From an uncultured Actinomycetes bacterium (GTDB taxonomy: Bacteria > Actinomycetota > Thermoleophilia > UBA2241): a stretch of 64,000 nt of DNA. The position numbers and the translations under genes are program-made. Under the pieces are notes generated by a model, which saw only the letters and a list, made by a program, of their open reading frames with translations, searched no databases and had not been told where the DNA came from. The DNA lies in the NCBI GenBank assembly GCA_963755025.1, contig CAVWIH010000024.1:1-64000 (forward strand), read 5' to 3'. Positions 9,968 to 58,493 of this stretch are shown in pieces (position 1 is the stretch's first letter; each line of letters starts with the position of its first letter).

Positions 9968-12900
9968 GTGACCACAGGCGCATCGCAGGGCTCCCGGGCC
10001 GCTTTCCGTGACTACCTCCAGGAAGTCGCCCGCAATCTCGAAGCCGGCAACGCCACCGAACACACCCACGGCCCGCACTCCAGGCTCTGCTTCAGGCGCT
10101 AGACCCTGGCGTGCGCGCGGTCAACGAGCCTAAACGCGTGGCCTGCGGCGCACCTGACTACATCGTCACGCGCAACGAGCTCCCTGTCGGCTACGTGGAG
10201 GCCAAGGACGTCGGCCGCTCGCTGGACAAGATCGAGCGCAACGAGCAGCTCAAGCGATACCGCGAGAGCTTGAGCAACCTCATTCTCACTGACTACCTGG
10301 AATTCCGCTGGTACCGCGACGGTGAGAGGAAGGATGCGGCGCGCCTCGCCTGCGTCGGCGACTCTGGCAAGCTACGCTCCGACGGCGAGGGCCAGGCGAA
10401 GGTGGCCTCTATGCTCAGTGCCTTCTTTGCACAAGAGCCACCAATCGTGGGCAAGCCTGAGGACCTCGCAAGACGCATGGCCTCCTTGGCGCGAACGATT
10501 CACGACGTTATCAAACTGGCGTTCGAGACAGACCGCAGCGGCGGCTCACCGCTACGTGATCAGTTGGAGGGTTTTCGGCGTGTCCTGATCCACGACCTCG
10601 ACGAAGAGCAGTTCGCCGACATGTACGCACAGACCATTGCTTACGGGCTCTTTGCTGCGCGCGTGAACGCCCCGGCCGATGAGCACTTCAGCCGCCAGCA
10701 CGCCGCCTACGACCTGCCGAAGACGAACCCGTTCCTGCGACAGATGTTCGGTCAGATCGCCGGTCCCGAGCTCGACGACCGCATCGTCTGGGTGGTCGAC
10801 GATCTGGCCGAGCTGCTCGCGCGAGCCCGCATGGACCTCGTGCTCGCAGACTTCGGCAAACGCACCCGTCAGGAAGATCCTCTGGTTCACTTCTATGAGA
10901 CCTTCCTGAAAGCCTACGATCCGAAGATGCGCGAAGCGCGCGGAGTCTATTACACACCCGAGCCGGTGGTCAGCTACATCGTGCGCAGCGTCGACCACAT
11001 CCTAAAATCCGAGTTCGGCCTGCCCGACGGCCTTGCTGACAACTCGTTGATCGAGGTGCCGGTGCCGGGCAAGCCGAAAGAGAAACGCATGGTGCACAGG
11101 GTGCAGATTCTTGATCCAGCCTGCGGCACCGGCACCTTCCTCGCCCAGGTCATCGAAACGATTCGCGACACCGTGGTGACCGAGCATGGCGCCGGTATGT
11201 GGCCCGGCTACGTGCACGATCACTTGCTGCCGCGCCTGCACGGCTTCGAGCTGCTTATGGCGCCCTATGCCATCGCACACCTGAAGCTCGGCCTGCGCCT
11301 CAAAGAGACCGGCTATGACATCGAGCAAAGCGAGCGTCTGCGCGTGTATCTCACGAACTCACTTGAGGAGGCGCACGAGCGCGAGCACGGCCAGCTCACC
11401 GGCACGTGGCTGGCCGAAGAGGCTTCACTGCGCGAGCGAAGTCAAACGCGAGCTGCCGATCATGGTAGTCCCTCGGGAATCCGCCATATTCCGAATAGCT
11501 CGCAAAACACGGGCGAGTGGATATCTACTTATCGGTGACTACAAGCGGGGCCTTGGCGAACGCAAAGTGGAACCTCGACGACGACTACGTGAAGTTCATC
11601 CGTTTCGGTCAATGGCGAATTGACCAGACGGGCTCGGGCATCATGGCGCTCATAACAAACCATGCGTTTCGCGACAACGCGACGTTCAGGCAGATGAGAC
11701 GGTCGCTTATGACCTCCTTTGACGGCTTGTCCATCCTTGATTTGCACGGAGACAGTAGGCGCGGCGAAGCAAGCCCCGATGGACTCCCAGATACGAACGT
11801 GTTCGACATCCAGCAGGGAGTGTCAATTGGCCTCTTCGTGAGGCACGAGCAGAAGCCTCACGGAGGCTGTAAGGTCAGGTTCTCTGAGCTCTGGGGCACC
11901 AGGCCGCACAAGTACGAGGTCCTCCTGGCGACTTCCTGCGAAAGCAGCGAGTGGAGCCCTCTGCAGCCCCGCGAGCCCCAACTACTCCTCAAGCCTCAGG
12001 ACGACGAGTTGGCAGAGGAGTACTACGGGGCACGCCGGTCACCGCATCTTCACCGAATACACCGACTGCGATCCAGACTGCGAGAGATTCGCTCGTCGTT
12101 GCATTCACTGCCGGCGAGCTTCGATCCAAACTGGGCGCATTTGTGGACCCGGTGGTCACTGACGAGGAGATACGGGGGCGTTTTGGAGTGGCCGACGGTC
12201 GCGGTTGGACGGTCCGAGAGGCACGAAGCGCGCTACGCGATGCCGGCATTCGCGATGACCTAGAGATGCCCTATTCGTACAGGCCCTACGACCAAAGGGT
12301 TGTCTACTACTCGCCAATCGTCGTTGCCTGGCCGCGCAATCGGATCGAGCGGCACGTCGCAGGTAGAGCAAATCTAGTGCTGTTGTGCACACGTAACAGC
12401 AACAGCCCGTCTGATGGTATTGCTCTCGAAGTCGCGGTCTCGCCGACAAGAGACTGCTCGGGGTTCGCGTGGTGAGGCGAAGTACATGTACCTGTACAGG
12501 TGGGAGTCCGGGTTCGATTCGCCAGCCGGCTTCCAGCCCCCGGATGGAAACGCCGCTGGCTCTCCTACGCCCAACCTGGATTCCACGTTCGTGAGGCGTC
12601 TTACGGAGGCGACTGGTCTTGAGTTCGTTCCAGCTGGGGCCGGGGACTGCCAAACAAGCGTTGGGCCTGAAGACATCTTGAACTACATGTTCGCAATTCT
12701 GTCGTCGCCGTCATATCGCAACAGATACGCGGACTTCCTGAGGTCGGATTTCCCTCGTATTCCGCTTACGTCCGATGCCACGCTCCTGCGGCAGCTCTGT
12801 CTGCTCGGCTCGCGGCTCGTCGCGCTCCACCTCTCAGAGGCCGACGATCTTGTTCCTGGCGCCCGATTCGAAGGGATCGGCACTAATCGGGTCGAGACTA

Positions 12901-13175
12901 TTCGCTACACGGAATCAGTCCAGGGTGGCGAGCACCGGCTGCGTGTGGATCAACAGCACCCAGTACTTTCAAGGGGTGCGCCCAATATCTGGGCATTTCA
13001 CGTGGGCGGCTTTCAGGTTTGTGCCAAGTGGCTCAAAGACCGCAAGGGCCGTCAGCTCACCTACGACGACCTGGCGCACTACCAGTACATCATCGGCGCA
13101 CTCGCCGAGACCATCGCGCTCATGCGTGAGATTGACGAGCTGATCGATGCCAATGGAGGGTGGCCGATCGGCTGA
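9968..13175 (+). CDS. Type IIG/ISP-related single-chain restriction-modification enzyme (nuclease + N6-adenine MTase + TRD; multiple frameshifts)
   Basis: N-terminal NATEHTH; PD..VEAK nuclease motif; GVYYTP; DPACGTGTFL; GNPPY at about 11476 (shifted frame); C-terminal YRNRYADFLRSDFPRIP and KWLKDRKGR. Confidence 0.85.
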
Positions 13176-13256: not shown

Positions 13257-14500
13257 ATGAGCGGGAAGAGTCACCGGCCATCACGAGAACCTTGGGCGCG
13301 GAGCTTGGCGACTAGTCGCCAACCTGCCGCCTGTCGTCACTGGATGGCAAGCGGCGCTACCCCGCACGACAAAGGTCGTCCACGCGAAGGGCGTTCGGGC
13401 AGCCGGTAAGGCCCTCGCCGACTGGCTCGCCGAACTCGAGGCCCACGACTGCACGGATCCCGATCGCCTGACCGTGGGCGAGGTCCTGCGGCGCTGGCTG
13501 GCCGAAGACGCAAAGCGGACGGTGCGCCCGAAAACCTACGAGCGGTACGAACAGCTCGTTGACAAGCACCTCAAGCCCTCGCTCGGCGCCATGCACGCCG
13601 CGGAGCTCACGCCAGCCGACCTCTCGGCTTTCTACGCCGCCAAACAGGAAGGCGGTCGTCTCGACGGTCGCGATGGAGGTCTGTCGGCGCAAACGTGCCT
13701 TCACATGCACCGCGTCCTTCACCGCGCCTTCCAGTGGGCAGTCTACGGTGACCTGATGGCGCGCAACCCGGCCACGCGCGTGCGCAAGCCGCCGAGCCCG
13801 AGCGGCCCACGGCGCCGCACCTGGACTGACGAGCAGATCGCCGACGCGATCGAGCTCGCGCGCGCCCACGATGCTCTACGTGCCGACCGTCCTGGCCGGC
13901 TGGGGCGGCCTGCGCCGCGGCGAGATCTGCGGCCTGGTCTGGACGACGTCCTCTGGGACGCAAACGCCGTGGTGGTACGCACCTCGGTTGAGCAGACCAA
14001 GGACGGTCTCCACGACCTGCCGACCAAGACTCGCGCCGGCGAGCGCGTGGTCGGGCTGCCCACCAGGCGATCGACGTTCTGCGCGAGCATGCACCCGCCA
14101 GGACGAGATGAAGATGGCCAAGGGTCGACGCTGGAACGCTCTCGGCCGCGTGATTTGCCGCGCCGATGGGTCGCCGATGCCCCCGAATGCGCTCTCGAAC
14201 CGCTGGTCAGAGTGGGTAGTGCGCAAGAAGCTTGAGCCGCGCATCTCCTTCCACGATTTGCGCCATAGCCACGCGACCATCCTCTACCACGCCGGCGTGC
14301 GCACCACGACGGTTTCCGAGCGCCTCGGGCATTCGACGCCGGCGATCACACGCGCCATATACCTGCATGGCACGGAGGCGACAGACCTCGCCGCGGTGAC
14401 TATTCTCGAGGAGCGCATCAAGGTGGCGCAGATTTCGCACTCGATTAGCACTTTGACCTTTGACCCATCAGAGCAGGTCGAAGAAAACTCCTGCAAATAG
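13257..14500 (+). CDS. int: Tyrosine recombinase/integrase (frameshifted)
   Basis: GLRRGEI, FHDLRHSHA, LGHS and IYLH catalytic motifs; N-terminal core-binding region; start approximate. Confidence 0.9.
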
Positions 14501-14506
14501 GCACAT

Positions 14507-14604
14507 GGAGCGGCTTCCGGTCCGGTGACCGGCGCGGTCTTCAAAACCGTCTGCGGGGCGGTGCTCCCGTCCTGGGTGGGTTCGACTCCCATGCCGCTCC
14601 GCCA
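14507..14604 (+). tRNA. selC: tRNA-Sec (anticodon TCA)
   Basis: 8-bp acceptor stem GGAGCGGC/GCCGCTCC, extended D-stem, CT-TCA-AA anticodon loop, long variable arm, GTTCGACTC T-loop, GCCA 3' end. Confidence 0.95.
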
Positions 14605-14959: not shown

Positions 14960-16420
14960 ATGACAGACACCGACGGAAACGGCCTTCGCCTTCAGGCCGG
15001 GTTTCTCGGCGACGACGACAAGCAGGCCATCTACGACGCCGCGCTTGAGATCGCCGAAACGGTAGGCATGCGCGTGCACCAGAAAGAAGCGCTCGAGCTG
15101 CTGCGCGCCGCCGGCGCCGAGGTGGTCGGCGACGACCTCGTGAAGCTGCCCCGGCGCCTCGTCGAGCGCGCGCGCTCCACGGCTCCCTCGGTGGTGCCGG
15201 TCTTCGACCGCAACGGCGAGCCCGCCATGCGCCTGGGCGGCCGGCGCAGCTACTTCGGCACCGGCTCCGACCTCATGAACATCTACGACCTCGAGACCGG
15301 CGAGCGGCGCCTGTCGGGGCTCGACGACGTGACCCGCGCGGCCAACCTTTGCGACGGCCTGCCCAACATCGACTTCGTCATGTCGTGCGCCTACCCCAAC
15401 GACGTCGAAGACCCGCACCAGGCCTACGTGGCCGAGTTTCGCGCCATGGTCATGGGCACCACCAAGCCCATGGTCGTGACCGCCGAAGGCGTCGACGACC
15501 TCGAGGTCATGTGGCAGATCGCCTCCGCGGTGCGGGGCGGCGCCCAGGCGCTCGTCGAGAAGCCTTACTTCGTCATGTACGGCCAGCCCAGCAGTCCGCT
15601 CGAGCACCCGCGCGACAGCCTCGACAAGCTGCTCTTCTGCGCCGACAAGGGCATTCCCGCGATCTACTCGCCGGCGCCGCTGGCCGGCGCCACCGCGCCG
15701 ATCACCGTGGCCGGGCACATCGCCCAGGGCACGGCCGAGTCGCTCTTTGGCCTCGTCATGCACCAGCTCCGCAACCCCGGCGCGCCGTTCCTGTTCGGCA
15801 TCGGCCCGGCGGTCCTCGACATGGCCACCGCGCAGTCGTCGTACAACGCTCCCGAATACCTCATGACCTATCTCGGCGCCATCGAGATGGCGCGCTGGCT
15901 CGACCTGCCGAACTGGGGCTACGGCGGCACCAGCGATTCGCAGCTGGTCGACGCGCAGGCCGGCATGGAAGCCGGCGAGCTCACCCTGCTCGCCATGATG
16001 GCCGGCTCCAACTTGAACCACGACGTCGGCTACCTCGACTACGGCATGACCGGCGCGCTCGAGCTCGTCGTGATCGTCGACGAGTTCGTCGCCATGAACC
16101 GCCGTCTGCTCGGCGGCATCACGGTCGACCGCGAGACCCTGGGGCTCGACGTGATCGCCGCGACCGGCCCCGGCGGCGACTTTCTGTCGACCAAGCACAC
16201 CGCCAAGCACATGCGCGCGGCGCAGTGGCGCCCGACGATCATGAACCGCAAGGGCTACGAGCGCTGGACCGAGAGCGACAGCCCCGACCTGCGTGAGGCG
16301 GCGCGCCTGAAGGCGCAGCGCCTACTCGCCACGCACGTCGCACCGCCGGTCGCCGCCGACGTGGCCGCCACGATCGACGCGCTCGTCGAGGGCTTCGCGC
16401 CGGCGGGTCGCCAGGGCTGA
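14960..16420 (+). CDS. MttB-superfamily corrinoid methyltransferase (non-pyrrolysine), copy 1
   Basis: YFGTGSD, GATAPIT.AG, PGAPF, SDSQ..DAQAG.E, GPGGDFL...HT motifs; no in-frame TAG. Confidence 0.9.
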   Translation: MTDTDGNGLRLQAGFLGDDDKQAIYDAALEIAETVGMRVHQKEALELLRAAGAEVVGDDLVKLPRRLVERARSTAPSVVPVFDRNGEPAMRLGGRRSYFGTGSDLMNIYDLETGERRLSGLDDVTRAANLCDGLPNIDFVMSCAYPNDVEDPHQAYVAEFRAMVMGTTKPMVVTAEGVDDLEVMWQIASAVRGGAQALVEKPYFVMYGQPSSPLEHPRDSLDKLLFCADKGIPAIYSPAPLAGATAPITVAGHIAQGTAESLFGLVMHQLRNPGAPFLFGIGPAVLDMATAQSSYNAPEYLMTYLGAIEMARWLDLPNWGYGGTSDSQLVDAQAGMEAGELTLLAMMAGSNLNHDVGYLDYGMTGALELVVIVDEFVAMNRRLLGGITVDRETLGLDVIAATGPGGDFLSTKHTAKHMRAAQWRPTIMNRKGYERWTESDSPDLREAARLKAQRLLATHVAPPVAADVAATIDALVEGFAPAGRQG

Positions 16421-16422
16421 CC

Positions 16423-17520
16423 TTGAGCGCTCCGTCTCGACACGATGCGCCGGGGCCCGCGAGGGGCCCGGCGCCCGTGGCGCTCCACCCGGCCGCGCTC
16501 GGCCCGGAGTTGCGCGCGGCGCTGACCGGGCCGTGCGGCGCTCCCGAGCTCGCGCTGCCCTGGATCGACCGCTTCTTCGAGCCCGACGAGCTGCGCCTCG
16601 TCGCCGTGCTGGCGGCCGGTCCGCTTACGCTGCCGGCCGCCGCGTCGGCGCTTGGTCGCCCGCTGCCGCCCGAGTTCCTCGAGCGCGCCGTGCGTCGGGC
16701 GGTCATCGACCGCCCGACGCACGACACCGTCGCGCTGGCCGACTTTGCCTCGCGCTTCGAGGTCTGGACGCTCTTCGAAGGCTGGAAGGACCTGCCTCAC
16801 GATGTGCGACGCGCCTTGGCCGACTGGTCGCTCGCGCGTTACATCGAAGCCAAGCGCCCGCAGGTCGAGAGCCTGCTCGCGGGCGAGGCGCCGCAGCCCG
16901 GCCTCGAGAACGCCGAGTACCTGCTGCTGCCCGAAGCCGAGGCGCTGCTCGCCCGCGCTGCGCACGTCTACCTGTGGCCGTGCGACTGCCGCGCCGCCAT
17001 GGAACGCTGCCGCAAACCGTCGCTCGTCTGCCTGCGCTTCAACAACGACCGCGGCCTGGGCTGGGAGATCTCGCACGAACGCGCCGTCGAGGTGCTGCGC
17101 GATGCCGACCGCCACGGCCTCATGCACACCGGCGAGGTCGCCACTCCCGGCGAGCTCACGCCGATCACCGCCGGCGCCATCTGCAACTGCTGCGGCGACT
17201 GCTGCTTTCCGCAGCTCGCCGCCGACGAGCTCGGCGCCACGCGGGTCTGGCCGCGGGTACGCTACGTCGCCGAGCGCGACACGGCGACCTGCACGTCGTG
17301 CGCGCGCTGCGCGCGCCGTTGCCCGTTCGGGGCCTTCACGGTCGAGTCCGGTGCGCAGTCCGAAAGCGCCGCGCAGGCCGAAGGCGCCGCGCAGACCAAG
17401 GGCGCCGCGCGCCGGTCCGCGCCCGTCACGTTCCACCCCGAGCTCTGCCGCGGCTGCGGGCTCTGCGCGACCGGCTGCCCCGAAGGCGCCATCACCATGG
17501 CGCCGCTGCCCGGCGCCTGA
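16423..17520 (+). CDS. 4Fe-4S ferredoxin-domain protein
   Basis: CDCR..C..C, ICNCCGDCC and two CxxCxxCxxxCP motifs. Confidence 0.85.
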   Translation: MSAPSRHDAPGPARGPAPVALHPAALGPELRAALTGPCGAPELALPWIDRFFEPDELRLVAVLAAGPLTLPAAASALGRPLPPEFLERAVRRAVIDRPTHDTVALADFASRFEVWTLFEGWKDLPHDVRRALADWSLARYIEAKRPQVESLLAGEAPQPGLENAEYLLLPEAEALLARAAHVYLWPCDCRAAMERCRKPSLVCLRFNNDRGLGWEISHERAVEVLRDADRHGLMHTGEVATPGELTPITAGAICNCCGDCCFPQLAADELGATRVWPRVRYVAERDTATCTSCARCARRCPFGAFTVESGAQSESAAQAEGAAQTKGAARRSAPVTFHPELCRGCGLCATGCPEGAITMAPLPGA

Positions 17521-17661
17521 GGCCGCTCGGCCGGCGCGGTGCGGCGCGCCGCCCGCCTCGCCGCCGGCGGGCGTCGCTTCGCCGGCACTCTGCGGCGCAC
17601 GCCTGCCGACCTGAACAGCTCGCGACGCTTCCGCGCCCCGCCGCCGGGCAATAAAGGTGGC

Positions 17662-19149
17662 ATGACGGTCCTTCTGAGCGGCGCGGCGCTGACTCTCGAC
17701 GAGCTCGTGCGAGTGGCGCGCGGCGGCGAGGCCGTCGGGCTTGCGCCCGACGTCGCGCCGCGCATGGCGCGCTCGCGCGCGGCGGTCGACGCGGCGCTCG
17801 CGCGCGGCGACGCCGTCTACGGCCTCACGACGGGGGTGGGCGTGCTCAAGCGCGTGCCGCTGGCCGCCGACGAGGTGGTGCGCTTCAATCGCCGTCTGCT
17901 GCAGAACCACCGCGTCGCCCAGGGCGTGCCGGTGGCGCCCGACGTGGTGCGCGCCACCATGCTCCGCCTGGCCAACGGCTTCGCCGCCGGTCATGCCGGC
18001 GTGCGCTATGAACTGGCCCAGCGCCTGGTCGAGGCGCTCAACCGCGGCGTCTGCCCGGTGGTGCGCGAGCTGGGCTCGCTCGGCGAATCGGACCTGGCGC
18101 CGCTGGCCGACCTGGCGGCCGGCCTGTTCGGCGACCCCGACCTGGCTGCCGGCGAGGGGCTCGCCGTGCTCAACAACAACGCCTTCTCCACCGCCACGGC
18201 CGCCCTCGCCGTGCACGACGCGGGGCGCCTGCTCGACGCCGCCGACGCCGCCGGCGCGCTCAGCCTCGAGGCGTTCGCCGCCAACCTCACCATCCTGCAC
18301 CCGGCGATCGTCGCGGCGCGGCCCGACAAAGGCCTCGCGCTGGCTGTCGGGCGACTGCGCCGCCTGCTCGACGGCAGCTACCTGTGGCGCGAAGGCGCCG
18401 CCCGCAACCTGCAGGACCCGCTCACCTTCCGCTCGCTCCCGGGGGTGCACGGCGCCTGCCACGACGCTCTGGCCTACGTGCGGCAGCGTCTGGCCGTGGA
18501 GCTGAACGCCGCCCAGGGGAACCCCCTGGTGGTGCCCGGCGAGCAGCGCCTGATCTCGGTGGCCAACTTCGAGGTGCTGGCGCTCGCCGCGGCGCTCGAC
18601 CTTGCGCGCATCGCCCTGGCGCCGCTGCTGACGAGTGCCGACGAGCGCGTCGTCAAGCTCCTCGAGACGCCCTGGTCGGGGCTGCCCACCGGCCTTGCGG
18701 TGGCGCCCGGCACGGCGGAGAGCGGCCTCAGCATCTACGCGATCGCCGGCGAGGCCATGACGGCCGAGGCCCGCACGTTGGCGCAGCCGGTCTCGTTCGA
18801 GCTGGCGAGCAGCGCCGGCGCCGAGGGCATCGAGGACCGCGCCACGATGCTGCCGCTCGGCGCGCGCCGCCTCGCCGCCATGACCGGCCTCGGCGAGCGC
18901 ATCCTGGCCATCGAGCTGCTGGTGGCCGCCCAAGCGGTGGAGCTGCGCGGCAGCGGACCGCTGGGGCGCGGCACGCGGCGCGTGTTCGAAGAGGTGCGCG
19001 AGCGCGTGCCGTTCGTGGGTCAGGACGATCCCCTGCCGGCCGACCTGGACGGCCTGGTCGAGCTCATTCGCGGCGGCGCGCTCGCCGGTTCGATGGGTGT
19101 GGCCACGGCGCCGGCTTCGCCCGCGGCGCCCGTGTCGCGCGTGCCCTGA
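17662..19149 (+). CDS. Aromatic amino-acid (HAL-family) lyase lacking the MIO-forming ASG motif
   Basis: VYGLTTG, GEGLAVLNNN, LQDPLTFR, GNP, NF and ED motifs; GSLGESDLAPL in place of canonical GSxGASGDLAPL. Confidence 0.85.
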   Translation: MTVLLSGAALTLDELVRVARGGEAVGLAPDVAPRMARSRAAVDAALARGDAVYGLTTGVGVLKRVPLAADEVVRFNRRLLQNHRVAQGVPVAPDVVRATMLRLANGFAAGHAGVRYELAQRLVEALNRGVCPVVRELGSLGESDLAPLADLAAGLFGDPDLAAGEGLAVLNNNAFSTATAALAVHDAGRLLDAADAAGALSLEAFAANLTILHPAIVAARPDKGLALAVGRLRRLLDGSYLWREGAARNLQDPLTFRSLPGVHGACHDALAYVRQRLAVELNAAQGNPLVVPGEQRLISVANFEVLALAAALDLARIALAPLLTSADERVVKLLETPWSGLPTGLAVAPGTAESGLSIYAIAGEAMTAEARTLAQPVSFELASSAGAEGIEDRATMLPLGARRLAAMTGLGERILAIELLVAAQAVELRGSGPLGRGTRRVFEEVRERVPFVGQDDPLPADLDGLVELIRGGALAGSMGVATAPASPAAPVSRVP

Positions 19150-19513: not shown

Positions 19514-20028
19514 GGGGTGTCCCTCCAGACGGCGTTTTCCCGGTGTCATCCTTCCCGTCGGGGCCGAGTCGTAACGAGAAGGTCGACCAGGGGGGCGGAC
19601 GGTGCGGCACGACGCCTGGCGCGGCGCGTCACGCGCGTGGCACACCGCCGCATCGGCGCTGCAGGCACAGAGAGTTGTGTTGCATCGCCGGTCGTCGTAA
19701 CATGCGCGCACACCGTCTCCACGTCGGATTCGGCACACCACGTCACTGTCGTTGTTCAGACGTTCCGGGGGAGAGACCGATGTCTGGCGCAGTACGGTCG
19801 CTCAGAGCCAATCGCCGCAGGGCCCGCGGGCCGGGCGTCCCTCCCTACGTCCTCACGCAAGACAGCACGAGCTTCGACTCCCACGCTCCCTGACGGCCCA
19901 CCGGCCGCCGACTGACACTCGGTCGCCGTCACCGTCACATCCGTTTTCTCTTTCGCGGCGCCGCCCCACCGGGCGCGTCGTCCTAGACGAATCCTTAGGA
20001 GACATGACATGGGAGACAAGCTGACGCT

Positions 20029-20668
20029 ACGGATGCTCTCCTCCGACGAGGTCGGCAAAGTGCGCGAGCAGTGCCTGCACCTGCTGTCCGAGATGGGCAT
20101 GAAGATCGACCACGAAGCCGTCCTGCGCATACTCGCCGACGCCGGCGCGCAGGTCGACTTCGAGACCAGGGTCGTGCGCTTCCCGGCCGCCCTGGTCGAG
20201 TCGGCCATAAAGACGGTCCCCGGCGAGCTCACGGTCAAGGGCGCCGAGGAGCGTCACGACTGCAAGATCCCGCACCCCGACGGCCTGTTCTACTCCTGCA
20301 CGAACATCCAGAGCATGCTGCACCACGACCCCGACACCGGGCGCTTCGTCGACAACACGGCCCAGAAGTACGCCGAGTGGTGTCAGGTCGTCGAGCTCCT
20401 CGACCACGCCGACATCTGCGCCATTCAGACGCCCATGGACGTGCCGGCCGAGAGCGCCGAGGTGCACGCCCTCGCCATCCAGATGCAGAACACGACCAAG
20501 CCGCTCTGGATGCACGCCTTCAGCCGCGAGGCCGTACCCTTCATGTTCGAGCTCATGGTCGCCCGCGTGGGCAGCGTCGAGGCCCTGCGCGAGCGCAGCC
20601 TCGTCATCATCAACCCCGGCACCGTCTCGCCGTTCATCATCAAGGAGATGGACGCCGAGGAGATCACG
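20029..20668 (+). pseudogene. MttB-superfamily methyltransferase, 5' half only (copy 2, truncated)
   Basis: MGDKLTLRML start with AGGAG RBS; EMGMKI, GAQVD, RFP, NTTKP motifs; similarity ends abruptly at about 20668. Confidence 0.8.
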
Positions 20669-21220
20669 GTCGGCAGCAGCGAGTTGCGCAGCACGTGGGT
20701 GAAGAGCACGCGCCGCGGCGACAGGCCGTTCAGGTTGGCGGTGCGCACGTAGTCCATCTGCAGCACGTCGACGGTGCTCGATCGCGTCATGCGTACCACG
20801 TAGGCCAGGCTGGTGAGCGCCACGGTAATCGCCGGCAGCACGAGGTAAGGGAACGCCTGCGTGAAGCTCGAGTGCGGGTCGATCGCCGAGCTCGCCGGGA
20901 ACCAGTGCAGTTTCACGGCGAAGATCGAGATGAGGATGACGCCGCTCACGAACTCGGGCAGACCGATGAAGGCCAGCGAGCCTATGGAGATCGTCTGGTC
21001 GAGCCAGGTGTTTCGTCGCAGGGCGGCGATCATGCCCAGGAAGATGCCCAGCGGCACGTAGAAGGCAAAAGCCACCAGGGCGAGCATGAGGGAGTTGCGC
21101 AGCCGCTCGAGGATCACGCCGCGCACCGGCTCGTTCATGCTGACCGAGGTGCCCCAGTCGCCGCGGATGTAGCTCGAGACCCAGCGCTCGTACTGCGTGG
21201 GGATGGGCTTGTCGAGGCCG
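20660..21220 (-). pseudogene. DppB/OppB-type ABC permease, internal fragment (inverted)
   Basis: GLDKPIPTQY..GDWGTS, LPAITVA, DYVRTA..GL, HVLRNSLLPTV motifs. Confidence 0.8.
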
Positions 21221-21429
21221 GCATAGGCTGGCTCATCGGCGGCCTCATCATCACCGAGTCGGTCTACTCGTACCCGGGCATCGGCCGGCTGCTGCTCTTC
21301 GCCATCACCAACCGCGACCTCAAGCTGGTGCAGGCCACGGCGTTGCTGATCGTCATCATCTACGTGGTCGCCAACTTCGTCGCCGACATCATCTACGCGC
21401 TGCTGAACCCGCGCATCAGGTACCAGTAG
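21221..21429 (+). pseudogene. DppB/OppB-type ABC permease, C-terminal fragment
   Basis: GGLIITESVYSYPGIG, NRD, NFVADIIYALLNPRIRY. Confidence 0.8.
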
Positions 21430-21568
21430 GGATCAGTAGGGCGATGCCGGCGCGGCGTCGCCGCGCGGCCGGGACGCGCGGTCGCCGCGCGGCCGGGGAC
21501 GCGCGGCGACGCGCGCTGTTGCGCGACGGCTATGATGTCGGGGTCGCCGTCGTCGCAAGGAGGGATTC

Positions 21569-22954
21569 GTGCTCAAGCACCCCCGCAACCCGAGGCGCGT
21601 GCAGCGTGACCTCGAGGTGCCGCCCATCTTCACCGCCGAGCTTTCGCGCGTGCCGCGCGACGAGCTGCCGGCGCGCGGCATGCCGCCCGACGCCGCCTAC
21701 CAGATCATCCACGACGAGCTCATGCTCGACGGCAACGCCCGCCTGAACCTGGCGACCTTCGTGACGACCTGGATGGAGCCCCAGGCCGACAAGCTCATGG
21801 CTGAGACCTTCGACAAGAACATGATCGACAAAGACGAGTACCCGCAGACCGCCGAGCTCGAGCTGCGCTGCGTGAACATGCTCTCGCGCCTCTGGCACGC
21901 GCCGGCCGCCGACGAGGCCGTGGGCTGCTCGACCACTGGTTCGAGCGAGGCCTGCATGCTCGGCGGCCTCGCCCTCAAGCGCCGCTGGCAGAAGCGGCGG
22001 CGGGCAGCGGGCCTGCCCGCCGATCGCCCCAACATGGTGATGGGCGTCAACGCCCAGATCTGCTGGGACAAGTTCATGAACTACTGGGACGTCGAACCCC
22101 GCCTGGTGCCCATGGAGGGCGACCGCTACCACCTGGCGGCCGACGAGGCCGTCGCCCTGTGCGACGAGAACACGATCGGCATGGTCGTCATCATGGGCTC
22201 GACCTACGACGGCAGCTACGAGCCGGTGGCCGACACCTGCCGGCTGCTCGACGAGCTCCAGGCGCGCACCGGCATCGACGTGCCGGTGCACGTCGACGGC
22301 GCCTCGGGGGCGATGGTCGCGCCCTTCATCGACCCCGACCTGCAGTGGGACTTCGCCCTGCCGCGCGTGGCCTCGATCAGCACCTCGGGACACAAGTACG
22401 GCCTGGTCTACCCCGGCGTGGGCTGGGTGGTGTGGCGCGACGCGCAGGCGCTGCCCGAGGAGCTCATCTTCTGGGTGAACTACCTGGGCGACGACATGCC
22501 GACCTTCGCCCTGAACTTCTCGCGGCCGGGCTCGCAGATCGTCACCCAGTACTACAACTTCCTGCGCCTGGGCTTCGACGGCTACGCCAGGGTGCAGGGC
22601 TACTCGCGCGACGTCGCCCTCTACCTGTCCGACAAGATCGCCGGCCTGGGGCCGTTCGAGCTGCTCACCCGCGGCGACGAGCTGCCCGTCTTTGCCTTCA
22701 CGCTGGCGGCCGACGTGAAGAACTTCAGCGTCTTCGACGTGGCCGACTGCCTGCGCGAGCGCGGCTGGCTCGTACCGGCCTACACGTTCCCCAAGAACCG
22801 CACCGACCTGGCGGCGCTGCGCATCGTCGTGCGCCGCGGCTTCACGCACGACGTCGCCGACCTGCTGCTGGCCGACTTCGCCCGTCAGCTGCCACGCCTC
22901 GCCAGGCAGACGGCGCCGGCCAACGAGGGCTCTGCGTCATCCTTCCATCACTAG
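21569..22954 (+). CDS. gadB: Glutamate decarboxylase
   Basis: LDGNARLNLATFVTTWME, KNMIDKDEYP, HVDGASG, STSGHKYG (PLP lysine), LNFSRP. Confidence 0.95.
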   Translation: MLKHPRNPRRVQRDLEVPPIFTAELSRVPRDELPARGMPPDAAYQIIHDELMLDGNARLNLATFVTTWMEPQADKLMAETFDKNMIDKDEYPQTAELELRCVNMLSRLWHAPAADEAVGCSTTGSSEACMLGGLALKRRWQKRRRAAGLPADRPNMVMGVNAQICWDKFMNYWDVEPRLVPMEGDRYHLAADEAVALCDENTIGMVVIMGSTYDGSYEPVADTCRLLDELQARTGIDVPVHVDGASGAMVAPFIDPDLQWDFALPRVASISTSGHKYGLVYPGVGWVVWRDAQALPEELIFWVNYLGDDMPTFALNFSRPGSQIVTQYYNFLRLGFDGYARVQGYSRDVALYLSDKIAGLGPFELLTRGDELPVFAFTLAADVKNFSVFDVADCLRERGWLVPAYTFPKNRTDLAALRIVVRRGFTHDVADLLLADFARQLPRLARQTAPANEGSASSFHH

Positions 22955-23073: not shown

Positions 23074-24453
23074 CTACCTCAGGCAGAACTCGTCGAGCTG
23101 ACGGCGCGTGACGTCGTCCAGGTCGTCGGGCGGCTCGTGGGCGGCGAGGCGGCGCTCCACCTCGGCGCGCGCCGCGGCGCGCACGTCGCCGTCGCCCAGG
23201 GCGCGCCAGCGCTCGGCGCTCTCGCGCACCAGGAACGTGGCGCGGTCGAGGTCACGGCCGTGGCGGCGCGTGTGCCCTTGACCCAGGTAGTCCCCGCCGG
23301 GGCCGACCGCGGCGATCACGTCGGTCGCCAGCGCCTCGGCGTCGGCGGCCGTCGGGGCGGCGGCGAGGCGCAGGGCGCAGATGAGCTCGTCGTCGAGCAC
23401 GTACTTCTCGAGCGACAGCACGTTGAACGAGCTCAGGATGCCGGCGGCCTGAAAGAGAAAGTCGCCGCCGGCGTCGGCCGAGGCCGACAGTCCCATGGTC
23501 GACTCGAGCAGCGCCTGGGCGTCGGGCACGTGCGAGTCGGTGACGGCTCCGCCCGCGCGCACCGGCAGTCCGGCGTGGTGGGCGAGGCTCACCGTCGCAT
23601 TCGCCATCAGGGCGAACTCCGGTGTGCCGAAGTGGGCGGCGCCGGTGCGCATGCTCGACATCGTCGAGACGGCGCCGTAGATGAACGGCGAGCCCTCGCG
23701 CGCGGCCTGCCCCAGCACCAGCGCGGCGAGCACCTCGGCGTGCTGCACGGTCAGCGTGCCGGCCGGCGTCGCCGGGCCGGTCGCGCCGCCCATCACGCAG
23801 GCGGTCACGCAGGCGGGCTGACCGAGAGCGGCCCAGCGCCGCAGGATGCGCGCGGTCTCCACCGACAGCAGCAGCGGAGAGTTGGTGTTGAGCACGATCA
23901 GCGCGCGCGGAGTGTCGGCCCACTGCGCGCCGTAGAGGATCTCGTTCATGGCGATCGCCTCGTCGACGTCGGGCTCGAGCGACGCGGTCCACTCCATCGA
24001 TTTGTCGCTCAGCGTGAGGCGAGCGTGGTCGGAGCGCCGCGTGCGCTGCTCCTCGGGCAGGTCGAGCGGCTCGATGCAGTCGCTGTTGAAGTCGAGGCCC
24101 GGCGACAGATGGCCGAGCTTGACCGTCGCCTGCGCGTCGGCCAGGGTGCCGGGTCGCACCACGGCGCCGTCGAGTACGTAGGCTGGCCCCGAGCCGCTGC
24201 CGAACACCGGCTGACCATCGCCGAAGCGCAGGTCGCGCCCCGGGTTACGCCCGGTCAGGGTGAATGCCCTCGGTGTACCGGAGAGGGCGCGCTCGACGAC
24301 CTCGCGCTCGATGAACACGCGGCGACCGTCGGCACGGGCTCCCACCGTCTTGAGCAGCGCGACGGAGTCGTCGTCCATGACGACCACGCCGGTCTGGGCC
24401 AGCACCCGCAGGGCGGCCTCGTGGATGGCGACGATGTCGGCGGGCGCGAACAT
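23074..24453 (-). CDS. MttB-superfamily methyltransferase (non-pyrrolysine), copy 3; start uncertain (possible GTG near 24594 with an indel)
   Basis: IHEAALRVL, GGATGPAT.AG, GSPFIYG, TDSH.PDAQA, GPGGDYL...HT. Confidence 0.88.
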   Translation of the reverse strand: MFAPADIVAIHEAALRVLAQTGVVVMDDDSVALLKTVGARADGRRVFIEREVVERALSGTPRAFTLTGRNPGRDLRFGDGQPVFGSGSGPAYVLDGAVVRPGTLADAQATVKLGHLSPGLDFNSDCIEPLDLPEEQRTRRSDHARLTLSDKSMEWTASLEPDVDEAIAMNEILYGAQWADTPRALIVLNTNSPLLLSVETARILRRWAALGQPACVTACVMGGATGPATPAGTLTVQHAEVLAALVLGQAAREGSPFIYGAVSTMSSMRTGAAHFGTPEFALMANATVSLAHHAGLPVRAGGAVTDSHVPDAQALLESTMGLSASADAGGDFLFQAAGILSSFNVLSLEKYVLDDELICALRLAAAPTAADAEALATDVIAAVGPGGDYLGQGHTRRHGRDLDRATFLVRESAERWRALGDGDVRAAARAEVERRLAAHEPPDDLDDVTRRQLDEFCLR

Positions 24454-24864
24454 CAGCGGCTGCGCGCGGCGAAGGCCGGCGACCGAGGGGCTCGCGAGAT
24501 GGGGACCGGCGGCCACAGGGCTCGCGGGGCGAGGGCCGGTGACCAAGGGGCTCGCGCGCGCGAGGGCGGTCTGAGCGTCGATCTGTCTCCCACTGTGCCG
24601 TCTCCTTGGTCGTGCCGTCAGATGCGTCGTGCGCGCCGCACACGCCGCAGCTCGTAGCATAGGCAATCGCGCGGCGCGTTGCTTCCGCACCGGCGCCTCC
24701 CCACGTGCCGCGCTCACGCGACCTGTGCGATCCCCGCGTGCGCGCTCACGCGCCTGTGCGATCTCCACGCGCCGCGCTTTCCGGCCGCTCGGCGCGGTTT
24801 GGGCGACCGGCGAAACCGTGCAGAACCAAACCGACACCCGGCCACGACGAAATGAGGACCCCAG

Positions 24865-25380
24865 ATGCTCGACCAGCGCATGCAGGACGCCCTGAACAAG
24901 CAGATCAACGCCGAGATCTACTCGGCCTATCTGTACCTCTCGATGTCGTCGCAGTTCGCCGAGCTGGGCATGGCGGGCGGCCAGAACTGGATGCACATCC
25001 AGTTCCAGGAGGAGCTCTTCCACGTGCAGAAGTTCTTCGACTACGTCGTCGAGCGCGGCGGCCGGGTGCTGCTGACGGCCATCGACCAGCCCGACCAGGA
25101 ATGGCCCACGGCGCTCGCCATCTTCGAGCAGGCCCTCGCCCACGAGCAGAAGGTCACCGCCCTCATCAACGGCCTCGCCGACTTGGCCGTGGAGCTGCGC
25201 GACCACGCCACCCTGCAGGAGCTGCAGTGGTTCATCGGCGAGCAGGTCGAAGAAGAGGCCACCGCCGGCGACATGGTCAAGAAGCTGCGGCTCATGGAAG
25301 GCGCCCCCGGCGCGCTCTACGAGATCGACAAAGAGCTCGCCACCCGCGTGTACACGGCGCCGGCGATCGCCGCTACGTAA
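24865..25380 (+). CDS. ftnA: Ferritin
   Basis: LNKQINAEIYSAYLYLSM, EELFH, HEQKVT, LQWFIGEQVEEE ferroxidase motifs. Confidence 0.95.
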   Translation: MLDQRMQDALNKQINAEIYSAYLYLSMSSQFAELGMAGGQNWMHIQFQEELFHVQKFFDYVVERGGRVLLTAIDQPDQEWPTALAIFEQALAHEQKVTALINGLADLAVELRDHATLQELQWFIGEQVEEEATAGDMVKKLRLMEGAPGALYEIDKELATRVYTAPAIAAT

Positions 25381-31634: not shown

Positions 31635-33070
31635 CTAGCTGCCGGGCGGTGCCTGCTCGACGATCTGGTCGAGTCGGCGTCGCAATGGTTGGTCGAGTGT
31701 GAAGGTCGGAGGGCTTGCGAGCAACTCCCGAGTGCGCCGCGCCACGCGCTGCTTGAGCGTGGTCGCGCCCTCGGCCTGCCAGCGTTTGTAGACCGACTGG
31801 TCGAGCAGGCTGGACTGGCGGAACGTGCGGTAGCGGCGGCGTGTCAGGGGGCGCGCCAGGTGATTGCCGCCGGGGCCGGCGAGCATGATCTCGTCGAGGG
31901 CCAGGGCCTCGTCGTCGAAGGGCAGTCGTTCGCCGAAGGCGCGGGCGTAGCCCACGAGCTCGTCGCCGAGCACGAGGTGCTCGTACGAGCTCTGCAGCCC
32001 CGACTCGAGGTAGCCGACGTCGTGGATGAGGGTGGCGCGGCAGAGCTCGCCGAGCACGGCGCCCATGGCCGCCTCGGCTGCGGCCTGCTCGTCGTCGAGC
32101 TTGCTGTCGGAGTCGCCCGCGTAGGCCCAGCTCGGCAGGCCGTACCAGCGCGCCAGGTCGATGCACGCCTGGTTGCCCAGGGCCACGCCCGGCGCCCGGT
32201 AGGGCTCGATCATGGTGCGCATGTTGAGCACGCCGACGCCGGCGCCGTACAGGAACGGCGCGCCGGGGTGGGCGAGCTGGTGCACGACGAGGCCGGCCAG
32301 TACCTCGGCGTTGGCCACCACGACGACCGCCGCCAGCGAGGCCGGCGCCGTGGTGCCGGCCGACGGCGACGGCGCCAGCACGGCCGGCACGTCGAGCTCG
32401 CCGCAGACGAGGAGCTTGTCGAGGCAGCCTTCGTCTAACTGCAGGGGCGGCGACGACATGGTAAGGCAGGCGAGGCTGCCGGCCCGGCCGCAGGCGGCCG
32501 CCATCTCGACCATCACACGCAGCGAGGCGCCGCCGAACGGGCTCGAGACGACGATCGGCTTGCGCGTGCCGGCCAGCATGGCGGCGAGCTGAGCCAGGTC
32601 GACGCGCTCGGGGTCGGCGTCGTCGGGCAGACCCATCGACATGACGAAGTCGATGTTGGGGAGGGCTTCGGCGAGCCGGGCGAAGGTCTCGACGTCGGCC
32701 AGACGGGCGCGCCGCCGGCCGTCGTGCTGGTCGGCCACGTACAGGCAGTCGGGCCCGGTGCCGTACCAGGAGAGGCCGTCGCTGAGCTCGCGGTCGAGGC
32801 TGCCGTCGGCGGCGCGACCGTGCAGCACGAAGCCGCGAGGCGCGCTCGCCACCGCCTGGTCGACCAGGTCGCGCGACAGGCGGGCGCGGGTGCCGGAGAC
32901 CTGCGCGCCCGCCCGGCGCAGCAGTTCGAGCGCCCGCGGGTGGCGCACCTCGACGCCGGTCTCGGCGAGCACCCGGCAGGTCGCGTCGTGCACCTTGCGG
33001 CAGGCCGCGTCGTGCCACACCCGCAGTTCGGCGCGCGGTTCGGCGCCCGGGTGTGGCGCCGCCGGGTCAC
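31635..33070 (-). CDS. MttB-superfamily methyltransferase (non-pyrrolysine), copy 4 (probable 1-nt indel just after start)
   Basis: YGTGPDC, IDFVMSMG, PGAPF.YG, SDSK, HDVGYLESG, GPGGNHL; GTG at 33070 overlaps the upstream stop but is out of frame. Confidence 0.9.
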
Positions 33071-34470
33071 GCTTCGCGCTCGCGCCCGGCGGCCTGCATG
33101 ATCTCGGCGACGTTCGCCAGCATCGCGGGGTCGGCCACGAAGGCGCGCGTGGCGCGCAGTTCGGCGACTCTGGCCTTGACCCTGTCGAGCATGGTCAGGC
33201 GCCCGCCCGCGTGCCAGCGGTCGTAGACCGAGTGGTCGAAGAGGTCGTCGTACCAGAAGTCGCGCGAGTGGGCGCGGGTGTACTTGCGAGCCAGAAAGTT
33301 GCCGCCCGGGCCGACCGCGGTGATCTCGCCGACGGCGAGCGCCTCGTCGGTGGTGGGCACGTCTGCCATGAAGGCCTTGGCCCAGCCGATGGCGGCGTTG
33401 CCGAAGACGATCGACTCGCACGAGCTCTGCAGGCCCGACTCGAGGTAGCCCACGTCGTGGATGAGCGTGCCGCGCGGCAGGGCGCCGGCCATGGCGGTGA
33501 GGCCGTACTCGAGGGCGAACTGCTCGTCGAGCGTCTTGGAATCGGACATGGAGGCGTAGTTGAAGCTGGGCAGTCCGTACCAGCGACAGAGGTCTTCTTG
33601 CGCGGCCTGACCGAGCGGGCTCTCGGGGGTGGTGTAGGCGTCGACCGCGGTGCGCATGTCCATGGCGCCCGTGCCCACGCCGAAGACAAAGGGCGCTCCG
33701 GAGCGGATCTGCTGGTGGTAGACGAGGCCGGCGAGCGTTTCGGCGTTGCCCACCACGGCGGTGCCGGCGATCGAGCGCGGCCCCGTGGAGCCGGCGTTGG
33801 GCGCCGCGGCCCAGATGATGGGCACTTCGTGCTCGGCGCAGGCGGCCAGCTTGGTGAGGCCGTCGCGGTCGTGCATGAGCGGCGGCGCCGGCATGGCGTA
33901 GATCATGAAGCTGTCGGGCGCGCCGGCGGCGGCGCACATGTCCTTGACGGCTTTGACGACGCCGCCGTTGCGCGTGGCCACCATGAGCGGCTTGCGCGTG
34001 CCGGCGAGCATGGCGGCCACGGCCGACAGGTCGTCGACGGCCAGCGGCGCGTCTTCGGGCAGGCCCATCGACATGACGAAGTCGAGGTGGGGCAGCTGCT
34101 CGGCGAGCGCCGCCATCTCTTCGATGTCGGCCATGCGCACGCGGCGACGCTCGCCCGAGTCGGGGTCGCGGTAGAACAGGCAGTCCGAGCCGGTGCCGAA
34201 CCAGGTGAGCCCGTTACGCAGTTCGAGGTCCTTGTCGCGGCCGCGCGACCGGACGGTCCACGTCCGGGGGGCGGAAGCTAGGGCCTTGTCGACGACGGCT
34301 GCGTCCAGTCGGACGCGCGTGCCGTCGACCCGGCCGCCGGCCGCGGCGAAGACCTCGAGGGCTGGTGGGTAGCGGACGTCGATGCCGGTCTCGGCCAGCA
34401 CCTGAAGCGTGGCTTGGTGAACGCGACGGCAGTCGTCGTCGCTCCAGACTACGATGCGGGCCGCTGACAT
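33067..34470 (-). CDS. MttB-superfamily methyltransferase (non-pyrrolysine), copy 5
   Basis: FGTGSDC, DFVMSMG, GAPFVFG, SDSK, HDVGYLESG, GPGGNFL; AAAGGGG RBS. Confidence 0.92.
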   Translation of the reverse strand: MSAARIVVWSDDDCRRVHQATLQVLAETGIDVRYPPALEVFAAAGGRVDGTRVRLDAAVVDKALASAPRTWTVRSRGRDKDLELRNGLTWFGTGSDCLFYRDPDSGERRRVRMADIEEMAALAEQLPHLDFVMSMGLPEDAPLAVDDLSAVAAMLAGTRKPLMVATRNGGVVKAVKDMCAAAGAPDSFMIYAMPAPPLMHDRDGLTKLAACAEHEVPIIWAAAPNAGSTGPRSIAGTAVVGNAETLAGLVYHQQIRSGAPFVFGVGTGAMDMRTAVDAYTTPESPLGQAAQEDLCRWYGLPSFNYASMSDSKTLDEQFALEYGLTAMAGALPRGTLIHDVGYLESGLQSSCESIVFGNAAIGWAKAFMADVPTTDEALAVGEITAVGPGGNFLARKYTRAHSRDFWYDDLFDHSVYDRWHAGGRLTMLDRVKARVAELRATRAFVADPAMLANVAEIMQAAGREREA

Positions 34471-57090: not shown

Positions 57091-58493
57091 CGTCCGCGTA
57101 GCCGGAGCCTGTCGGCGAGCAGGGCCGCGAGCCGCGCCGCGGCAGCTTCGTCGACCAGCACGGGGCGCGGCCGGGCGAGCAGCTCTTTGGCGGCGGCGCT
57201 GGTGCGCTCGCGCAGCGTCTGCGACCCCTCGGAGCGCCAGCGGTCGTGCATGGTGTGGCTGAAGAGGCTCGTCTCCCAGAAATCGCGGTAGTGGCTGCGC
57301 GTGTAGCGCGTCGCCAGGTGATTGCCGCCGGGACCGGCCGCCTTGATCTCGTCGAGGGCCAGCGCCTCGTCGTCGAACGAGGTCTCGCGCAGAAAGGCGC
57401 GGGCGTAGCCCACCAGCTCGTTGCCCAGCAGGATCGACTCGTACGAGCTCTGCAGGCCCGACTCGAGGTAGCCCACGTCGTGCAGCAGCGTGGCTTTGGA
57501 GAGCGCCCCCAGCAGCGCGGTGAGGGCGGCTTCGGCCGACCACTGTTCGTCGAGCGTCTTCGAGTCGGACACGGCGGCATACGAGAAACTGGGCAGGCCG
57601 TAGTGCCGGGCCATGTCGACGCCCGCCTGGTGGCCCAGGAAACTTTCGGGCACGACGTAGGGGTCGATGCCGGTGCGCATGTCCATGACGGCGACGCCGG
57701 CGCCGTAGACGAAGGGCGCGCCGGCCGCGGTGAGCTGGTGCAGCACGAGGCCGCTCAGCACCTCGGCGTTGCCGACCACGAGGCTGGCCGCTACCGAGCG
57801 CGGCGCGGTGGCGCCGGCGTTGGGCGCCGGCGCGTAGACCAGCGGCACGCCGAGCTCGGCGCAGGCGATCACCTTGGTGAGCGCGTCGCCGTCGTGCATG
57901 AGGGGCGGCGAGGGCATGGCGTAGATGATCACGCTGTCGGCGGCGCCACAGGCGGCGGCCATCGCCTTGATGTCGGCGATCACGTCGCCCTGGCGCGGCG
58001 CCACCACGAGGGGCTTGCCGGTGCCGCGCAGCATGGCGGCGACCTGGGCGAGGTCGTCGACGGCCTGGGGGACGTCGGCCGGCAATCCCATCGACATGAC
58101 GAAGTCGATATTGGCGAGGCGGTCGCAGAAGGCGGCCATGGTCTCGATGTCGGCGGTCGTCGCGCGGCGCCGCTCGGAGGTCTCGGGGTCGCGCACGTAG
58201 AGGCAGTCGGAGCCCGTGCCGAAGTACGACTCGGCCGCGCTCAGCCGCAGCGCGCGGCCGTCGTGGCGGGCGCGCACCGTGGCCGAGCGCGGCGCCGACT
58301 CGAGCGCGGCGCGCACCAGCTCGCGGCTCAGACGCACCCGGCGGCCGGCGACACTGGCGCCGGCCGCCGCCAGCGTCTCGAGGGCGGGCTCGTAGAACAC
58401 GTCGACGCCGACGGTCTCGAGCAGGTCGACGGTCGCGTCGTGGACCCGCCGGCAGTCGCCGTCGTCGAGCAGTGTGAGACTGGCGTGGGCCAT
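57087..58493 (-). CDS. MttB-superfamily methyltransferase (non-pyrrolysine), copy 6
   Basis: YFGTGSDC, IDFVMSMG, GATAP, GAPFVYG, SDSK, HDVGYLESG, GPGGNHL. Confidence 0.92.
   Translation of the reverse strand: MAHASLTLLDDGDCRRVHDATVDLLETVGVDVFYEPALETLAAAGASVAGRRVRLSRELVRAALESAPRSATVRARHDGRALRLSAAESYFGTGSDCLYVRDPETSERRRATTADIETMAAFCDRLANIDFVMSMGLPADVPQAVDDLAQVAAMLRGTGKPLVVAPRQGDVIADIKAMAAACGAADSVIIYAMPSPPLMHDGDALTKVIACAELGVPLVYAPAPNAGATAPRSVAASLVVGNAEVLSGLVLHQLTAAGAPFVYGAGVAVMDMRTGIDPYVVPESFLGHQAGVDMARHYGLPSFSYAAVSDSKTLDEQWSAEAALTALLGALSKATLLHDVGYLESGLQSSYESILLGNELVGYARAFLRETSFDDEALALDEIKAAGPGGNHLATRYTRSHYRDFWETSLFSHTMHDRWRSEGSQTLRERTSAAAKELLARPRPVLVDEAAAARLAALLADRLRLRGR

Follow-up and report, generated by a model that had tools for sequence, protein, structure and literature searches.

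A MIO-less lyase in a conserved operon with an MttB-family methyltransferase: a candidate module for the degradation of histidine betaines

Among the metabolites of fungi and actinobacteria, hercynine and ergothioneine are abundant, and soil Actinomycetota carry many MttB-family methyltransferase paralogues without pyrrolysine (Pyl). Why does a gene of this methyltransferase family stand in line with a lyase of the histidine ammonia-lyase (HAL) family that has lost the residues forming the 4-methylideneimidazole-5-one (MIO) cofactor? This question is raised by nucleotides 14960-19149 of the DNA analysed here (the window, positions 1-64000 of contig C24), which comes from the 3.37-Mb genome of a soil actinobacterium (Thermoleophilia), with 39 contigs, about 70% G+C and a completeness estimate of 84%. 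Three open reading frames (ORFs) lie there on the plus strand. They encode a non-Pyl MttB-superfamily protein of 486 aa (mttB, 14960-16420), predicted to be a quaternary-amine:corrinoid methyltransferase, a Cys-rich iron-sulfur (Fe-S) protein of 365 aa (16423-17520), and a MIO-less HAL-family lyase of 495 aa (17662-19149), predicted to be a cytoplasmic methylated-amine lyase. We read the three genes as one operon and as a functional module that may degrade an imported N-alpha-trimethylated imidazole amino acid, most likely hercynine, and our confidence in this reading as a whole is evenly balanced.

Identity and active site of the lyase

The start of the lyase was placed at 17662 (MTVLLSG), which agrees with the N-termini of homologues; the longest ORF would begin at 17539. 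No signal peptide was seen by inspection of the N-terminus, MTVLLSGAALTLDELV. The PF00221 profile matched the protein with an E-value of 1.3e-110, in two stretches broken at the MIO site. The translation contains the motifs AVYGLTTGVG and ELGSLGESDLAPL. Where the genome's own HutH (C30:42770-44125) reads GSLGASGDLAP, the lyase reads GSLGES-DL in the same columns, which means that Glu-Ser stands for Ala-Ser-Gly and the loop is one residue shorter.

Related lyase loci were collected by a scan of one genome per species. It yielded 80 loci in which the lyase identity ranges from 56% to 96%; Gaiellales and other Thermoleophilia account for most of them, Chloroflexota for a few and Dormibacterota for one. 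These sequences were aligned with the window protein (81 family rows in total) and the genome's own HutH. Ala-Ser-Gly was missing in 81/81 family rows, and the site read [EQ..][SAG]-D. The loss of the triad is therefore not a sequencing error, and the family-wide conservation of the loop settles whether the reads would restore it. The first-pass annotation of this DNA had described a lyase that keeps VYGLTTG but carries GSLGES-DL in place of the triad, and this description holds in the translation and throughout the family. A custom pattern for the shortened loop, G-[ST]-x-G-[EQL..]-[SGA]-D-L, fitted 84 of 120 homologues among the matches listed, and none of the 84 had Ala-Ser-Gly, the remaining 36 homologues lying outside the pattern. 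In pairwise comparisons with four relatives, which were used for all three genes, dN/dS of the lyase was 0.18-0.30, indicating purifying selection.

The best PDB sequence match of the lyase was the Treponema denticola ergothionase (6s7j, phmmer E 5.4e-57). The lyase-family profile aligned with 6s7j in a single unbroken stretch (E 2.9e-85, 289.9 bits), whereas its scores with MIO-bearing HALs were 243-274 bits and most of these aligned in two pieces. The loops S-I-G-E-G-D-I of 6s7j and S-L-G-E-S-D-L of the lyase show the same shortened G-E-x-D, and both proteins have Leu (L254 in the lyase) at the position of Pseudomonas putida HAL Tyr280. These results agree with the earlier assignment of the protein to the MIO-independent trimethylammonia-lyase branch. 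The AlphaFold model (pLDDT 85.9, pTM 0.88) has the HAL fold, with loop residues 139-141 poorly modelled.

HutH shares the fold (TM 0.89 for P. putida HAL), and the five residues Tyr, His, Gln, Arg and Glu are present in both. Unlike HutH, the window lyase has no MIO triad, has Leu for Tyr280, and scores only 318.2 bits with the NCBIfam hutH model (TIGR01225), under the cut-off of 539.15. The first-pass expectation that the gene would be auto-annotated as hutH is correct for JGI, where the relatives are labelled 'histidine ammonia-lyase', but not for NCBI, where they are labelled 'aromatic amino acid lyase', nor for the hutH score. Many 'histidine ammonia-lyase' labels on such copies in metagenomes are probably mistaken.

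Active-site residues were mapped by HMMER alignments to 6s7j and P. putida HAL. Y53, H83, Q251 and R257 are invariant over the 81 family rows, and E391 is retained in 78 of them; the carboxylate-site Asn lay outside the confidently mapped positions. According to the available parts of the preprints of Bertsova et al., MIO-less trimethylammonia-lyases retain the catalytic Tyr as well as Gln/Arg/Asn for binding the carboxylate and His/Glu for binding the imidazole, and the equivalents of the five residues in HAL or the histidine betaine (HB) lyase contact the beta-proton, the imidazole and the carboxylate. The same parts describe Lys384 of T. denticola ergothionase as thiolate-binding and essential for ergothionase activity, and report Asn at this site in the Shewanella woodyi HB lyase and Gln in SO_3299. 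The window lyase has Ile361 there; Lys occurs in 0/81 family rows, and Asn in seven family members linked to MetE-like genes.

From these alignments we read the protein as belonging, or closely related, to the cofactor-less branch handling unsubstituted imidazole. With Tyr, His/Glu and Gln/Arg kept and Ile at the site of the thiolate Lys, it resembles a lyase of the hercynine type rather than an ergothionase, and is predicted to convert an imidazole (histidine-derived) betaine to urocanate. Of the two substrates first suggested, ergothioneine is made unlikely by Ile361 and by the lack of Lys in the whole family, and a hercynine-type betaine fits better. That the protein is nevertheless an ergothionase, cleaving ergothioneine to thiourocanate and trimethylamine (TMA), is in our view extremely improbable. 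The T. denticola enzyme is indeed the best PDB match in both sequence and fold, and shares the shortened loop and the Leu, but its essential Lys is never found in the family, and the identity is just 29%. The two genes also differ in genomic context.

The closest functional precedent is the S. woodyi histidine betaine trimethylammonia-lyase Swoo_3913 (bioRxiv 10.1101/2025.08.13.670108), compared here through the available part of its published description. It is likewise a PF00221 protein without Ala-Ser-Gly, and both enzymes keep the catalytic Tyr, Gln/Arg and His/Glu and have a neutral residue at the Lys384 site. Swoo_3913 is described as a periplasmic enzyme that depends on Mg2+ and whose gene is clustered with that of a urocanate reductase serving anaerobic respiration. 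The window lyase, in contrast, has no signal peptide and is set with MttB and the Fe-S protein.

The mttB-FeS-lyase operon and its conservation

The MttB protein matched PF06253 with an E-value of 1.4e-81. Its gene has no in-frame stop, so there is no Pyl codon, as the first-pass annotation had stated, and the score with the Pyl-MttB equivalog TIGR02369 (362.9 bits) is under the cut-off of 525. GGAG stands 8 nt upstream of the ATG, and dN/dS was 0.09-0.32. The best PDB matches were Desulfitobacterium hafniense MtgB (2qne/9yce, E about 1e-61). The substrate residues of MtgB, as given in the available part of the source (J Biol Chem 2026, PMC13080624), are Y97, R312, H348 and F356. They align with S103, W319, H354 and G362 of the window MttB, and only one of the four, the His, is kept. 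The predicted pocket differs from that of MtgB by the smaller Ser and Gly plus a Trp, and is probably roomier. The S/W/H/G signature was found in 48/48 distinct MttB sequences at least 50% identical, taken from all loci collected, and was absent from 10 more distant ones. We know of no substrate for this subfamily.

The characterised non-Pyl MttB family (MtgB, MtpB, MtcB, MtyB, MthB; PMC13080624) likewise consists of PF06253 TIM-barrels without UAG. Unlike the systems described in the accessible part of that paper, the window MttB is paired with a lyase and has no adjacent gene for a cognate corrinoid protein or methyl-tetrahydrofolate methyltransferase. The genome holds a very large MttB paralogue expansion: its 3.37 Mb contain 34 MTTB matches, corresponding to about 26 genes. 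Six of these matches lie in the 64-kb window (15002-16387, 20024-20650, 23077-24453, 31656-33035, 33151-34461 and 57108-58541).

The Fe-S protein consists of a helical N-terminal domain, a middle part with nine conserved Cys and a C-terminal 2x[4Fe-4S] ferredoxin domain. The invariant Cys are C187, C189, C196, C203, C254, C256, C257, C260 and C261, together with two CxxCxxCxxxC motifs. Pfam and NCBIfam searches recognised only the ferredoxin domains (Fer4-type, residues 285-360), and the Atlas neighbours of the protein are unnamed Fe-S proteins. The AlphaFold model is poor (pLDDT 60.6), and Foldseek with this model gave nothing beyond ferredoxin modules and weak indications of a winged helix, none of them at E <= 0.001. 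The term 'polyferredoxin-like' in the first-pass annotation was right about the Fe-S nature of the protein but overstated its content of ferredoxin domains, of which there is one, next to the nine further Cys. The gene has a dN/dS of 0.25-0.55, and its paralogues in the genome (C30 at 47% and C14 at 27%) stand in unrelated contexts. The protein was also considered as a corrinoid reductive activase of the RamA/RACo type; this was rejected, as it has no ASKHA ATPase or RACo_C_ter domain and matches only Fer4 families.

The intergenic distances are 2 nt between mttB and the Fe-S gene and 141 nt between the Fe-S gene and the lyase, and the G+C content at third codon positions is 0.88-0.93 across all three ORFs. 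An MttB gene was found within 4 kb at 9/80 lyase loci. At eight of them it lies upstream on the same strand; at the ninth (L001) the upstream mttB is cut by the contig end and is visible as a 93%-identical fragment. The Fe-S gene stands between mttB and the lyase in 7/80 loci, being in two pieces in L002 and lacking in L005 and L068. The same-strand order mttB-(FeS)-lyase is kept at lyase identities from 96% to 61%, and is retained down to 61-65% lyase and 65-67% MttB identity. A quick IQ-TREE phylogeny of the lyases, with the HutH of the genome as root, placed all mttB-linked lyases in one 18-row clade (SH-aLRT 99) and the window lyase in a group of 7 in which all are mttB-linked (SH-aLRT 97).

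Reciprocally, the window MttB was searched against 401 genomes of the class at E <= 1e-100. The search matched 81 genomes, including 68/79 of the same family. Among the 11 loci, other than its own, with an MttB at least 73% identical, seven had the lyase downstream, one had the Fe-S gene without the lyase, one was truncated and two had neither. As a control, MttB was found within 8 kb in only 1/16 loci of true HutH orthologues. In another genus, the same three families occur rearranged, with mttB at 56-57% identity, the lyase at 55-56% and the Fe-S gene at 42-45% on the opposite strand. These results indicate that the linkage is real but restricted to a lineage whose members, being kin, are not independent. 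The gene order on one strand that the first-pass annotation had reported is thus present at 14960-19149, and the co-occurrence of MIO-less lyases with mttB that it suggested testing was found within the clade but not family-wide, since most relatives stand beside Zn-type homocysteine methyltransferases.

Indeed, a MetE-like gene (PF01717, about 367 aa) is present in 46/80 lyase loci, where it ends at or overlaps the lyase start, and a homocysteine S-methyltransferase gene (PF02574) lies within 4 kb in 27/80. At least one of the three methyltransferase types (MetE-like, PF02574, MttB) was found within 4 kb of the lyase in 58/80 loci, and none in 22/80, several of which have short flanks. The recurring partner of the lyase family is therefore a methyl-capturing enzyme of a kind known to act on onium donors, not MttB as such. 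Other recurring neighbours are an MFS transporter, an ATP-grasp gene and an Opp-type ABC transporter. A few loci also have CDO-like cupin or amidohydrolase neighbours. A connection of these with the oxidative degradation of ergothioneine was considered and dropped, as two papers on the subject gave no support for placing the degrading enzyme in the CDO family.

The machinery for using the products is encoded in trans. Profiles for B12-binding, pterin-binding and RACo proteins had no match on contig C24, so the corrinoid-dependent methyl capture proposed in the first-pass annotation is not encoded locally. Elsewhere the genome has 17 B12-binding matches, two RACo-type activases and two pterin-binding proteins, and one urocanase gene (hutU), in addition to the separate true hutH on C30. 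It also has PylS, PylD and tRNA-Pyl (C10:71096-71168, within the Pyl region C10:70114-76259), and a single in-frame TAG occurs in each of five MttB and six MtbB matches. MtmB had no match in the genome, of which the assembly is 84% complete. With Pyl-type MttB and MtbB in the genome, TMA or dimethylamine (DMA) released by the lyase could be used.

Proposed route and rival explanations

In the proposed route, the non-Pyl MttB would move a methyl group from the quaternary nitrogen of the betaine to a corrinoid protein whose gene lies in another part of the genome. The cofactor-less lyase, with its conserved Tyr as base, would then eliminate the remaining methylated amine. We favour DMA released from N,N-dimethylhistidine, the alternative being TMA straight from the betaine. 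Urocanate would enter the HutU pathway of the genome, and the released amine would be demethylated by its pyrrolysine-containing DMA and TMA methyltransferases. The Fe-S protein would probably serve as an electron carrier, which is the least certain part of the scheme. The strongest argument for methyl removal and amine elimination acting on one compound is that methyltransferases of the onium-donor type recur beside the lyase.

The order of the two enzymes can be argued both ways. If the methyltransferase acts first, its chemistry is precedented and the lyase must eliminate DMA, a reaction on N,N-dimethylhistidine that is, to our knowledge, not known for any HAL-family enzyme. If the lyase acts first and releases TMA, the lyase chemistry is precedented, but the neighbouring methyltransferases have no role or must demethylate TMA, which we believe to be unprecedented for all three families (MttB, MetE-like and homocysteine S-methyltransferase). 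We tentatively favour the methyltransferase-first order, although it is itself rather doubtful, and regard the lyase-first order as unlikely. By extension, histidine betaines may be degraded by a 'demethylate, then eliminate' route with the lyase family providing the shared second step; the first methyl of hercynine would be removed by the corrinoid-dependent MttB or, in most Gaiellales, by the Zn-dependent MetE-like or homocysteine S-methyltransferases; this broader proposal is speculative.

Several observations weigh against the proposed module. MttB is absent from 71/80 lyase loci, the linkage being confined to one clade, and at two loci (L089 and L090) MttB orthologues at 79-80% identity have no lyase nearby. 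Tens of MttB genes per genome also give a high base rate of nearness. No corrinoid protein, methyl-corrinoid:tetrahydrofolate methyltransferase or intact transporter gene was found in the operon or the window, and the Fe-S protein has no assignable function and is missing from two of the operons. As for the lyase, His83 is the sole residue pointing specifically to imidazole. The fold does not separate the candidates, Foldseek giving a TM of 0.86-0.87 to 6s7j and 0.89 to P. putida HAL, so that the structural comparison suggested at first established the HAL fold but did not discriminate between ergothionase and HAL. The DMA step is also at odds with the characterised MIO-less lyases, which need a trimethylammonium group according to the available part of the discussion of Bertsova et al. 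If the betaine is instead the direct substrate of the lyase, the neighbouring MttB is a competitor for it and the linkage is unexplained.

The most serious rival to the module is that the lyase is a plain cytoplasmic hercynine trimethylamine-lyase that, like the S. woodyi HB lyase, yields urocanate and TMA, while MttB, merely co-regulated with it, uses another betaine or draws on the same pool in parallel. Such chemistry is precedented for MIO-less lyases in the published descriptions available to us. The five MttB genes with in-frame TAG and the Pyl machinery could deal with TMA, the seven MetE-linked members have Asn at the Lys384 site as reported for the HB lyase, and 22/80 lyase loci have no methyltransferase nearby. 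This explanation leaves unaccounted for the three unrelated methyltransferase families beside the lyase in 58/80 loci, often with overlapping stop and start codons, and the single MttB subfamily with an invariant pocket, and we consider it unlikely, if worth keeping in view. Adjacency without function, in which a lyase landed by one of tens of MttB paralogues and was inherited in one lineage, seems improbable. It would suit the 34 MTTB matches in 3.37 Mb and the six in the window, the restriction of the linkage to one 18-row clade of kin, and the MIO-bearing HAL paralogues (HAL2), which stand next to MttB in only 8/19 loci, all from one or two genera. It does not suit the short same-strand gaps, the gene order that persists at identities as low as 61-65% (lyase) and 65-67% (MttB), the trio regained in rearranged form in another genus, or the single MttB neighbour among the 16 HutH controls.

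Finally, the lyase might act on a non-histidine aromatic or heterocyclic betaine or an N-methylated amino acid, or might be a non-catalytic or regulatory relic. To this we also give a low probability. A MIO-less lyase with Ser for His83, beside an opine-dehydrogenase-like gene (L115), and the poorly modelled loop 139-141 speak for it. On the other side are the conservation of H83, E391, Q251, R257 and Y53 across the family, a dN/dS that does not suggest a relic, and the hutU of the genome, which is available for urocanate.

A literature search, in which subscription journals were mostly not covered, gave no account of a pairing of MttB with a MIO-less lyase and none joining MttB with ergothioneine; the proposed breakdown of histidine betaine by mttB-FeS-lyase would probably be a route not yet described. 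The first-pass summary of MIO-independent lyases and non-Pyl MttB enzymes agrees with published accounts, as far as their available parts go. A lyase with a histidine-pointing active site, fixed in an operon with one MttB subfamily, offers a concrete and testable substrate hypothesis. If true, the demethylate-then-eliminate route would give the first substrate for the S/W/H/G MttB subfamily, which is greatly expanded in Pyl-using soil Thermoleophilia. Acceptance of a dimethylamino substrate by the lyase would mean that the cofactor-less HAL-superfamily enzymes have a broader chemistry than is known. For methylamine cycling, it is relevant whether hercynine and ergothioneine in soil end up as TMA, as DMA or as captured methyl groups.

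Flanking genes and related clusters

The interval between the lyase and a downstream glutamate decarboxylase gene holds a decayed insertion (19725-21532) outside the working module. Pfam matches on partial ORFs there revealed an N-terminal MttB fragment (about 20024-20650, plus strand) and ABC permease fragments (about 20616-21048 on the minus strand and about 21223-21420 on the plus strand). L009, the closest long relative, does not have the 1.8-kb insertion, and its decarboxylase gene follows the lyase at about 0.5 kb. A role in the pathway was considered for the encoded pyridoxal phosphate-dependent decarboxylase (21536-22954) but was rejected, because the protein scores as a glutamate decarboxylase (TIGR01788, 648.7 bits) and because in L003 and L004 copper-resistance genes stand between its gene and the lyase. 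Together with a Dps/ferritin gene (24856-25380), the decarboxylase gene of the window flanks a second, opposite-strand MttB gene at 23077-24453.

On the other side of the operon, a selenocysteine tRNA gene (tRNA-Sec) lies at 14507-14600 on the plus strand (Rfam, 72.8 bits). Directly 5' of it are a frameshifted tyrosine integrase gene and fragments of a type ISP restriction-modification gene (13474-14500 and 10111-13175), which look like a decayed inserted island. Synteny with L009 starts only at 14693. In two of the related operons, an aldehyde:ferredoxin oxidoreductase gene stands directly 5' of mttB (L007, 5168-7393; L068, 6157-8214).

Other combinations of MttB and HAL-family genes were also observed. 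In a sister genus (L113, L121, L151, L153 and L158; e.g. L113:3929-12404), two or three tandem MttB genes are divergent from the gene of the MIO-bearing HAL2, which has Asn-His at the His83 site. This cluster includes two MttB with the S/W/H/G pocket, a corrinoid protein, an SBP5 ABC transporter and an IclR regulator. A general MttB-HAL rule was considered on the basis of HAL2 and dropped as main evidence, as MttB lies within 8 kb in only 8/19 HAL2 loci, all from one or two genera. A third HAL type (L123-L126) is 51% identical to HutH, with the MIO triad intact and Ser-Cys-Cys for the HAL Ser-His. An MttB with about 30% identity to the window MttB is encoded no more than about 3 kb away from it. 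In L115 (13327-15916) and L171 (6720-9392), a MIO-less lyase 54-56% identical to that of the window follows an opine-dehydrogenase-like gene, downstream of three tandem MttB genes. The loop of the L115 copy reads G-A-S-D.

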